Assembly: GCF_010671925.1 (NCBI RefSeq)
Contig: NZ_JAAHIH010000001.1
Coordinates: 549,053 to 613,052, forward strand
Direction: 5' to 3'
DNA: 64,000 nucleotides
Origin: Moorena sp. SIOASIH
GTDB lineage: Bacteria > Cyanobacteriota > Cyanobacteriia > Cyanobacteriales > Coleofasciculaceae
Shown: positions 10,418 to 10,908 of the stretch, piece by piece
How the letters are laid out: every line of letters begins with the position of its first letter
Numbering within the stretch: position 1 is the first letter of the stretch
Made by a program: the position numbers and the translations under genes
Notes under the pieces: model-generated
Database searches by the model: none
Seen by the model: only the letters and a program-made list of their open reading frames with translations
Told to the model about the DNA's origin: nothing

Positions 10418-10908
10418 GTCAGTAATCAGCTATCAGCAGTCAGCTTTGCTACTAATACGTAAGCTATCAGCTATCAGCTATCAGCTATAGCGCTACGCTT
10501 AGCGTCAGAAGTAAGAAGTTAGAAGTCAGAAGTAAGCTATGACTAAGTTTCGGAGTTTAGGAGCGATGCAGCAAGGGAACAGGGGAGGCAGCAAGGGAAC
10601 AGGGGAGGCAGCGCGGTCTTGGGGGTCTCCCCCATGAGCGACTGCCGTGGTTTCCCCCATGAGCGACTGCCGTGGTTTCCACGGGGCAAACAGCGGTGCG
10701 GACGCAGGTTCCGCACACAGACCCATGCGCCATGAGCGACTGCATCAAGACAATGTCAAACATCTGAATGCGTAGTGCTATATTAGCTATCAGCTTTGGG
10801 CCTGTGGCCAAGGTACACCGAACAGCTTTTGAATAAAATAAGCTGACGGCTGACGGCTGACGGCTGACCACTGACCACTGACCACTGACCACTGACCACT
10901 GACCGCTC
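10418..10908. mobile_element. Composite MITE-like repeat region (nested copies). It contains (CAGCTAT)n, (GGCTGAC)n and (CACTGAC)n arrays plus the dispersed motif CCATGAGCGACTGC[CA]…
   Basis: Shares TTTTGAATAAAATAAGCTGACGGCTGAC, GCGGTCTTGGGGG and CATGAGCGACTGCATCAAGACAATG with the copies at 29837 and 61240. Its termini are degenerate, so the boundaries are approximate. Confidence 0.5.

Follow-up and report, generated by a model that had tools for sequence, protein, structure and literature searches.

Small dispersed repeats (SDRs) were reportedly described in 2008 by Elhai, Kato, Cousins, Lindblad and Costa in Nostoc punctiforme and its relatives, as families SDR1–SDR8 with units of 21–27 nt, essentially confined to the Nostocaceae. 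They are said to form hairpins with compensatory changes, to lie in heptamer arrays and mini-transposons, to nest within themselves and to have been mobile recently, without a known enzyme. Rickettsia palindromic elements (RPEs), reportedly described by Ogata et al. in 2000, are said to be 100–150 bp long, to sit in frame in protein genes and to be limited to Rickettsia. Here we describe an imperfect hairpin element of 51–52 nt found in a 64,000-nt stretch of the genome of Moorena sp. SIOASIH (contig NZ_JAAHIH010000001.1, positions 549,053–613,052; hereafter the window) and in many other cyanobacterial genomes. It probably represents a family of very small non-autonomous mobile hairpin elements, the high identity of its copies reflecting recent copying and not host function. 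It is a new member of the known class of very small mobile repeats, or possibly merely a new host range of that class. In kind, the element matches SDRs as described: its hairpin with compensatory changes, embedding in heptamer arrays, self-nesting and recent mobility are all shared features. The likeness is one of description. Its copy number in Moorena DNA is high. The mobile unit in Moorena is 51–52 nt (about 45 nt in a second, inner type), compared with 21–27 nt for SDRs, its 19- and 25-nt modules falling in or near the SDR range, and the element is abundant in Moorena, Okeania, Dapis, Xenococcus/Waterburya, Stanieria and Crocosphaera besides the Nostocales. What looks additional to SDRs is the 51–52-nt mobile unit, the explicit conservation rules, the in-frame insertion into a gene, and the near-identity and abundance in Coleofasciculales (Moorena), other Oscillatoriales-type genera, Pleurocapsales and Chroococcales. 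Two further papers describe SDR5 as inserting within the highly iterated palindrome HIP1, and SDR-like repeats as not found in HIP1-rich genomes outside the Nostocaceae (PMC5861425, PMC4390886).

Several other classes of short repeat share part of this description. The repetitive extragenic palindromes of the REP/REPIN-RAYT system are likewise short, imperfect, G+C-rich and mostly extragenic; they number hundreds of copies, and their movement is believed to involve single-stranded hairpins and to leave no target duplication (Bertels and Rainey 2011, PMC3116915; Di Nocera 2013, PMC3733652). The element differs from them in lacking a GTAG/CGTC head, its 5' ends being AGCG..., GGTGA... or GAGGCAG..., and in that REPs are species-specific whereas the Moorena hairpin is identical across orders. 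A motif search of the 1.85 Mb of DNA fetched for this work (whole genomes were not searched) gave no repeat-flanked RAYT (Y1) gene. The RAYT-linked REP of N. punctiforme (GTTGGGTTGAGGAACGAAACCCAAC), the only cyanobacterial one on record, is unrelated in sequence. With RPEs the element shares palindromy and in-frame placement with read-through as peptide (17 codons in one methyltransferase gene), but there is no sequence relation and most Moorena-type copies are intergenic. Palindrome-associated transposable elements (PATEs) of the IS200/IS605 type and other HUH-mobilised elements resemble it in the lack of target duplication, the asymmetric ends and the hairpins, which are essential for recognition. 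PATEs, however, need both a left-end and a right-end hairpin and insert 3' of a fixed tetra- or pentanucleotide, while the simple form here has a single hairpin and a weak target preference; no linked TnpA was found near the element by motif search of the fetched DNA. Nezha, a classical cyanobacterial MITE (miniature inverted-repeat transposable element) portrayed in PMC3184786 (after Zhou 2008), is also non-autonomous and structured, with filled and empty sites between relatives, but is 130–170 bp long with terminal inverted repeats (TIRs) matching an insertion sequence (IS) and with flanking direct repeats; the present element is three times smaller and lacks a target duplication. Integron attC sites were rejected, the ends being AGCGATG.../...CAAGAC instead of RYYYAAC...GTTRRRY and the copies being dispersed instead of separating cassettes.

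An earlier note on the window had proposed a dispersed family of two conserved motifs, and the family is real. At up to 3 mismatches CATGAGCGACTGCATCAAGACA has six matches in the window (5848–5869(−), 10731–10752(+), 13312–13333(+), 29974–29995(−), 58289–58310(+) and 61463–61484(+)) against 0.00 expected from 100 shuffles, and at up to 1 mismatch GCGGTCTTGGGG also has six (10613, 23364(−), 30029(−), 30048(−), 61399 and 61418) against 0.14 expected. These sites overlap no open reading frame (ORF) with Pfam support, the ORFs that they do overlap being made of heptamer arrays or without a Pfam hit. The copy coordinates given at the time are correct to within about 10 nt. The list of GCGGTCTTGGGG-type sites was sound as far as it went but overlooked 23364 and 30048, and the copy placed at 10665–10700 does have the same right arm but with another junction (CCCCCATGAGCGACTGCCGTGG, 10654–10675) and not the ...ATCAAGACA form. 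The division into two motifs does not stand, as is evident from the copies in other genomes: in most cyanobacterial matches the right-arm motif makes up the 3' half of a single sequence, AGCGATGCAGCGCGGTCTTGGGGGTTTCCCCCATGAGCGACTGCATCAAGA(C), so that one imperfect hairpin has GCGGTCTTGGGGG as its left and CCCCCATGAGCGACTGC as its right arm.

The complete element reads AGCGATGCAG-CGCGGTCTTGGGGG-TTT-CCCCCATGAGCGA-CTGCATCAAGAC and runs from a 5' tail (AGC) through a basal stem of 7 bp (GATGCAG/CTGCATC) and an interrupted middle stem to an apical stem-loop, GGGGG-TTT-CCCCC, closing with the 3' tail AAGAC. Its termini are asymmetric, about 5 nt separating the hairpin from the 3' end, and it folds at −28.3 kcal/mol (z = −4.5), the opposite strand being equally stable. 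The unit can be read as two arms of about 25 nt, with a 19-nt left unit and a 25-nt right unit as modules. Among the matches listed, the commonest bounded form is the canonical 51-mer (51 of 133 copies), and copies with both termini fall into two main classes, of 51–53 nt (n = 90) and 95–103 nt (n = 27). In the longer class a second hairpin with other ends (GAGGCAG...CTGCCGTG), the inner type of about 45 nt, is nested in the loop of the first; the 95-nt class is represented by at least 13 copies in other Moorena genomes. An alternative right arm, CCCCCACTCGCT(A/G)T in place of CCCCCATGAGCGAC, is seen at 61431–61446 of the window and in four metagenomic loci (L163, L197, L223, L240); this arm complements the usual one base by base without being its reverse complement, and is unpaired with the left arm.

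Copies outside the window were collected by two scans of at least 120 loci each, one of genomes (one per species) with the right-arm motif and one of metagenomes in which only the left arm and loop were fixed (GGTCTTGGGGGTTTCCCCC), and the 51-mer was counted by blastn-short. The genome-scan matches listed are nearly all cyanobacterial, from Moorena, Okeania, Dapis, Xenococcus/Xenococcaceae, Waterburya, Crocosphaera, Calothrix rhizosoleniae and metagenome-assembled genomes (MAGs), and the identical canonical 51-mer is present in Moorena, Okeania, Dapis, Xenococcus, Crocosphaera and freshwater MAGs. Further copies of the core lie on plasmids of Nostoc flagelliforme, Nostoc sp. C057, Nostoc PCC 7120, Halotia, Fischerella, Brasilonema, Tolypothrix and Stanieria, the PCC 7120 copy lying between tnpB and tnpA of an IS200/IS605 unit, and on three IMG/VR viral contigs; it was not found in GenBank phage records. 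The non-cyanobacterial and first viral matches (L001–L003, L006, L031, L036) were set aside as chance, having only the ...GACGGCATCAAGA variant in coding sequence, with the rest of the element missing. In Moorena DNA unselected for the motif the density is about one copy per 10–14 kb, the window having 7 sites. No Rfam family corresponds to the element: at the gathering threshold only a HEARO RNA elsewhere in the window is reported, and E-value searches with two copies gave chance hits (E ∼0.5 or more). A full-text literature search for the motif strings returned nothing relevant, and no description of a 51-nt element was found in the literature on Moorea MITEs and on short tandemly repeated repetitive (STRR) sequences.

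The element is mobile, with exact ends and with nesting. When the flanks of each copy were joined and searched for in the fetched DNA, many uninterrupted empty sites were found, and in 13 of the 13 pairs aligned the filled and empty sites differ by exactly the element, 51–53 nt for the simple form and 96, 100 or 101 nt for composites. M. producens 3L (L081), for example, is filled where Moorena sp. SIO3I8 (L065) is empty, with flanks 98.75% identical, and in L110 one of three tandem paralogues is filled. Composites with quite different interiors have been inserted as units (L013, L082, L094), indicating that the termini define the moving segment. No target-site duplication is seen in the 13 pairs or in 118 distinct flanks, the sole ambiguity being a single A, and a classical DDE-derived MITE, with its duplication of fixed length, was rejected on this ground. 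Across the 118 distinct flank pairs, A-R-N-G is preferred on the right, and the sequence on the left is A/T-rich. Heptamer arrays lie beside 23% of copies compared with 6.5% of random positions; in such arrays the element is placed exactly between repeat units, in phase in GGGAGTA, GGGAACA and GGTAATT arrays. Other insertions are found in ORFs, in IS elements and in other copies of the element.

Sequence constraint was studied in 80 distinct 52-nt metagenomic members, kept for having at most 3 mismatches to ATGAGCGA in the eight bases after CCCCC (10 were excluded). After CCCCC, the right arm has an invariant A33, while T34, G35, A36, C38, A40 and T42 are each conserved in at least 90% of members; these positions were free in the search pattern, but the mismatch pre-filter at positions 33–40 contributes to the figure. 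Positions 37 and 39 are variable and covary with their partners. The basal stem varies with its pairing kept (GATGCAG/CTGCATC, GGACGAG/CTCGTTC, GCGACAA/TTGTCGT, GAAAAG/CTTTTC, GCCAG/CTGGC, GTTAG/CTAAC and others). Overall, 89.7% of cells are paired on the named structure and 10 of the 18 pairs have changed on both sides. Double-sided changes number 151, compared with 45.7 ± 5.6 in shuffled data and 14–45 when partners are slid by 1–3 columns. All four Watson-Crick types occur at each of the pairs 6:45, 7:44 and 8:43; at pair 11:39, 44 sequences have CG and 31 have UA, with one wobble intermediate. At least three terminus classes are found, AGCG-stem...stem-AAGA(N), GGTGA-stem...stem-GAACCC(C)GAAGGG(G)T and GAGGCAG...CTGCCGTGG, of which the second (GGTGA...GAACCCGAAGGG) includes a second small hairpin; in a rough keyword tally 26 of the 80 members are left unassigned. 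There is thus clear selection for pairing, together with sequence constraint on the apex and right arm.

Resident copies tell a different story, which bears on the reading of each copy as a cis element beneficial to the host and selected at its own site, as a site bound by a nucleoid or regulatory protein, a hairpin that stabilises or terminates transcripts or a small-RNA module. The conservation of the right arm in the 80 pre-filtered metagenomic members would fit such a role, as would the location of the copies, 79% of which lie outside long ORFs (21% lie inside ORFs of at least 150 codons, some of them probably spurious), with 126 downstream and 77 upstream of genes. The window was compared in synteny with M. 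producens JHB (L126) and M. bouillonii (L125), and the copy at 13280–13333 occupies the same site in all three species and is therefore old. It is 89–94% identical between species, compared with 93–96% for 529 flanking positions, and its substitutions include some within the 'conserved' motif and some that disrupt stem pairs. The old copy thus decays like its flanks, and it is chiefly this that speaks against a host function at individual sites: individual copies are not under purifying selection, and constraint, absent on resident copies, must act on the ability to be copied, the mark of recognition by a mobilising activity acting in trans. Furthermore, very close relatives differ in the presence of copies while the neighbouring genes are unchanged, no Rfam family matches, and insertions occur in ORFs, IS elements and one another; the 21% of copies inside long ORFs and the frequent heptamer arrays beside copies weigh the same way. 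Orientation relative to genes is exactly random (63 same and 63 opposite downstream, 40 and 37 upstream). An intrinsic terminator was rejected because of the even downstream orientation and because no U-run follows the hairpin, CAAGAC(A) standing there instead. Selection for host benefit at each site is thus very improbable and largely refuted. A further reading, that the motifs are merely the best-kept inner segments of STRR-bounded MITE-like elements (TIR GTAAGCATTCAGC...GCTGAATGCTTAC), draws on the three of seven window sites that lie inside such elements. It is refuted, retaining next to no credibility, since the MITE-like element at 12575–12768 has no hairpin element, the copy at 13280 lies outside any, and elsewhere the 51-mer alone is the inserted segment in empty-site alignments. 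The motif is hence not restricted to full-length MITE copies, and the proposal in the earlier note that it is a discrete unit, apart from these larger elements, holds. As to what kind of functional unit, it is very probably a substrate of some recombination or transposition activity, one of the roles then offered, while a per-site protein-binding site or small-RNA seed is at odds with the decay of the old copy; the conservation then taken as a sign of a functional unit reflects, for most copies, recent copying and selection on the element's own propagation.

In the mechanism we favour for such a mobile hairpin, the element would be moved in trans by an enzyme recognising the apical hairpin and the right arm, because these are nearly invariant wherever the search design left them free; the basal stem would be required only to pair, and the termini would set the subfamilies. 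Nested composites arise when copies land in the loops of other copies, and tandem heptamer arrays are often hit as well. We prefer an intermediate in the form of a single-stranded DNA hairpin, which a strand-transferase of HUH type or similar would handle, in view of the lack of target duplication, the asymmetric ends, the hairpin near the 3' end and a hint of orientation bias along chromosome arms. The hint comes from the single 8.26-Mb scaffold of M. bouillonii, where 19 of the 22 insertions among the matches listed fit a two-block orientation pattern (permutation p ∼0.045). An alternative is that the same element moves through an RNA intermediate, its hairpin RNA being cut from longer transcripts, reverse-transcribed and integrated, which is the mechanism reportedly suggested by Elhai et al. 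in 2008. The exact and constant 5' and 3' ends whatever the context, the strong compensatory change in stems, the group II intron reverse transcriptase genes common in the loci (cluster c10; L124) and the PCC 7120 copy, with two compensatory C:G to U:A changes and one G.U, are all consistent with an RNA route. It would, however, predict an excess of G.U over A.C single changes, which is not seen (10 and 13), and a transcript-derived element might favour the sense orientation, whereas orientation relative to flanking genes is unbiased. Moreover, 51 nt is too small for a promoter of its own, and no poly-A tail, 5' truncation series or target duplication of target-primed reverse transcription is seen. 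We therefore regard the RNA route as unlikely, if less so than a host function at each site.

Several observations weigh against trans-mobilised hairpin DNA, beginning with the two-block orientation test, which is marginal. Clustering of all ORFs of element-bearing loci gave no candidate mobilising gene; the largest clusters (TnpB, histidine kinases, WD40/CHAT proteins and group II intron reverse transcriptases) have no fixed position relative to the element, and this includes the TnpB genes that are common nearby. A search for the Y1-transposase motif found none in the genome loci and one IS200-type TnpA (L251) in the 1.85 Mb of element-bearing DNA. The left flank (118 distinct flanks) has no conserved tetra- or pentanucleotide such as IS200/IS605 needs, and local GC skew is uncorrelated with orientation (p = 0.29–0.43). 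Both strands fold equally and the single changes are balanced between G.U and A.C, so that neither the active strand nor DNA versus RNA is distinguished. Finally, it is unusual for an ordinary selfish repeat to be identical across cyanobacterial orders, as the 51-mer is, and this calls for recent horizontal spread or else for a very conserved partner. A bolder possibility, which we hold only tentatively, is a cyanobacterium-wide system in which a conserved enzyme moves hairpins of about 50 nt without target duplication, by an undescribed transposition mechanism, these being the smallest class of mobile DNA. Its basis is the near-invariant GGUCUUGGGGGUUUCCCCCAUGAGCGA (where free to vary), the covarying basal stem and the interchangeable termini (AGCG...AAGAC, GGTGA...GAACCCGAAGGG and GAGGCAG...CTGCCGTGG). 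If true, such a system would extend well past the Nostocaceae and into viral contigs. A core hairpin shared across orders, with explicit rules and defined terminus subfamilies, makes the search for the enzyme more tractable.

Insertion into genes can leave them open. In M. producens JHB (L126, 496–547), a simple copy of 51 nt lies in frame inside an LCM-family methyltransferase gene, where it adds 17 residues (KRCSAVLGVSPMSDCIK) just before the VVNIGCG motif, and the ORF stays open; the orthologue in the window (ORF 791–1660, minus strand, compared over 1259–1507) is uninterrupted. By inspection, four of the six reading frames of the element are free of stops, and the frame used in JHB is also read through in a TnpB family of Okeania and Dapis. 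In that family (IS605-type; L004, L043, L074, L088, L098, L103 and L123), all members have the element at the same internal position, which indicates that the mini-hairpin hitch-hikes on a proliferating IS; a proliferating IS of the TnpB family is a plausible vehicle for spread between genomes. TnpB genes have been hit repeatedly, in the Okeania family, in L076, on the Stanieria plasmid and in the tnpB/tnpA spacer of PCC 7120. An enrichment of TnpB as a target was nonetheless rejected, with about 2 independent events in 118 distinct flanks (a rough count) against about 2.6% of the DNA in TnpB ORFs.

Mini-hairpins of this kind, of which there are probably hundreds per Moorena genome, reshape intergenic regions, seed or colonise heptamer arrays, nest in one another and can give proteins 17 extra residues. 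In Moorena, a genus studied for natural products, they are thus a source of strain-level variation and of assembly and annotation artefacts.

The seven sites of the window comprise three nested composites, one old simple copy, two degenerate partial copies and one left half, and the covariance model finds exactly three intact cores with a clear strand call (65 compared with about 10 bits). The composite at 10562–10752(+) is a triple nest with an outer shell AGCGATGCAGC...CCATGAGCGACTGCATCAAGAC(A), whose interior has two nested inner-type hairpins (GAGGCAG...CTGCCGTG), two tandem 25-nt right-arm units (10629–10678) and an unrelated small hairpin module, GGTGCGGACGCAGGTTCCGCAC, at 10694–10716. 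Its intact inner-type core at 10602–10653(+), GGGGAGGCAG-CGCGGTCTTGGGGG-TCT-CCCCCATGAGCGA-CTGCCGTGG, scores 65.1 bits with covariance model R1 (E = 4e-20), compared with 9.3 bits on the opposite strand, and the whole block is missing from the orthologous spacer of M. producens JHB. The composite at 29975–30117(−) consists of AGCGATGCAG, a 48-nt foreign hairpin insert (∼30060–30107), ACGGTCTTGGG, a nested inner hairpin and GTTTCCCCCATGAGCGACTGCATCAAGAC. The intact inner-type core nested in the loop of its outer element (30000–30051(−)) scores 64.8 bits with R1 (E = 5e-20), and the same architecture is mobile as a unit elsewhere (L094 filled, L032 empty). The small hairpin modules GGTGCGGACGCAGGTTCCGCAC (10694–10716) and GTGCGACCCGTGGCGAATTTAATTCGCCTACGGAAAACGCAC (30060–30107) recur in composites of several Moorena genomes and look like separate families of mini-hairpin repeats. 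A response-regulator ORF (30116–30592(−)) enters the MITE-like element here, its TAG stop overlapping the first bases of the hairpin element, and its C-terminus may be repeat-derived. The third composite, at 61388–61484(+), is a 96-nt double element with an outer shell AGCGATGCAG...CTGCATCAAGAC and, in its loop, an inner hairpin GAGGCAGT...TTGCCGTG, the inner right arm being the variant CCCCCCACTCGCTAT; it scores 41.2 bits with R1, with a 26-nt insertion.

The remaining copies are simple or partial. The old copy at 13280–13333(+) reads AGCGATTCAGC-AACGGAACAGGCGG-TTT-CTCCCATGAGCGA-CGGCATCAAGAA and is the solitary one noted above. The degenerate copy at 5848–5893(−), ...GCAAGTGGTGTGGTTTCCACTATGAGCGGCTGCATCAAGACAATG, lacks the left terminus, has 2 mismatches to the right-arm motif and lies between two heptamer arrays. 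At 58262–58310(+) is the degenerate 3' part of a long-form element, CCCCTGTGAGCACAGCCCCTCTCCATTCGCGACGGCATCAAGAC, adjoining an ACTCCCC heptamer array; comparable long forms, ...CCGCACACAGCCCCTCCCCATGAGCGACTGCATCAAGA, occur in L085 and L096. At 23353–23386(−) only the left half and loop are present (AGCGATGCAGCGCTGTCTTGGGGGTTCTCCCCAT), with a partial R1 match at 23353–23369. An octamer array, (ATGGGGAG)n at 23325–23358, starts exactly where the right arm of this half element would be expected (CCCCCAT...), as if it had grown out of that arm or were replacing it. The spacers around 5848 and 23363 are wholly remodelled in relatives, and the JHB spacer orthologous to the 5848 site has entirely different content.

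The window is also dense in tandem heptamer arrays of STRR type and in MITE-like elements bounded by them, at 12575–12768, 29833–30179, 61320–61592, ∼10450–10905 and ∼3206–3420, with GTAAGCATTCAGC and GCTGAATGCTTAC as TIRs and heptamer arrays ((C)TATCAG and GCTGACG) as arms. The one at 12575–12768 is missing in M. producens JHB and M. bouillonii, so that such elements are polymorphic too. The MnmE protein encoded in the window shares 100% identity with that of Moorea sp. SIOASIH and 97–99% with its counterparts in other Moorena strains. A full-length HEARO RNA (42076–42303(−), 143.6 bits) adjoins an ORF for an mnmA-type tRNA methyltransferase (40776–41864(−)), and no HNH/IscB-type ORF is seen beside it. 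A 17-nt tandem repeat, CAAGATGCCAGTTCTAC, of 5–6 units (57967–58068) has its inverted counterpart at a distance of 57 kb (558–627), the 77-nt arms being 96% identical (611–687 and 57924–58000). Finally, a repeat with a 24-nt period at 7285–8160 (about 36 units) encodes the PPDDGTVT tract of a 1368-residue protein with TPS/CHAT domains (5976–10082(−)).

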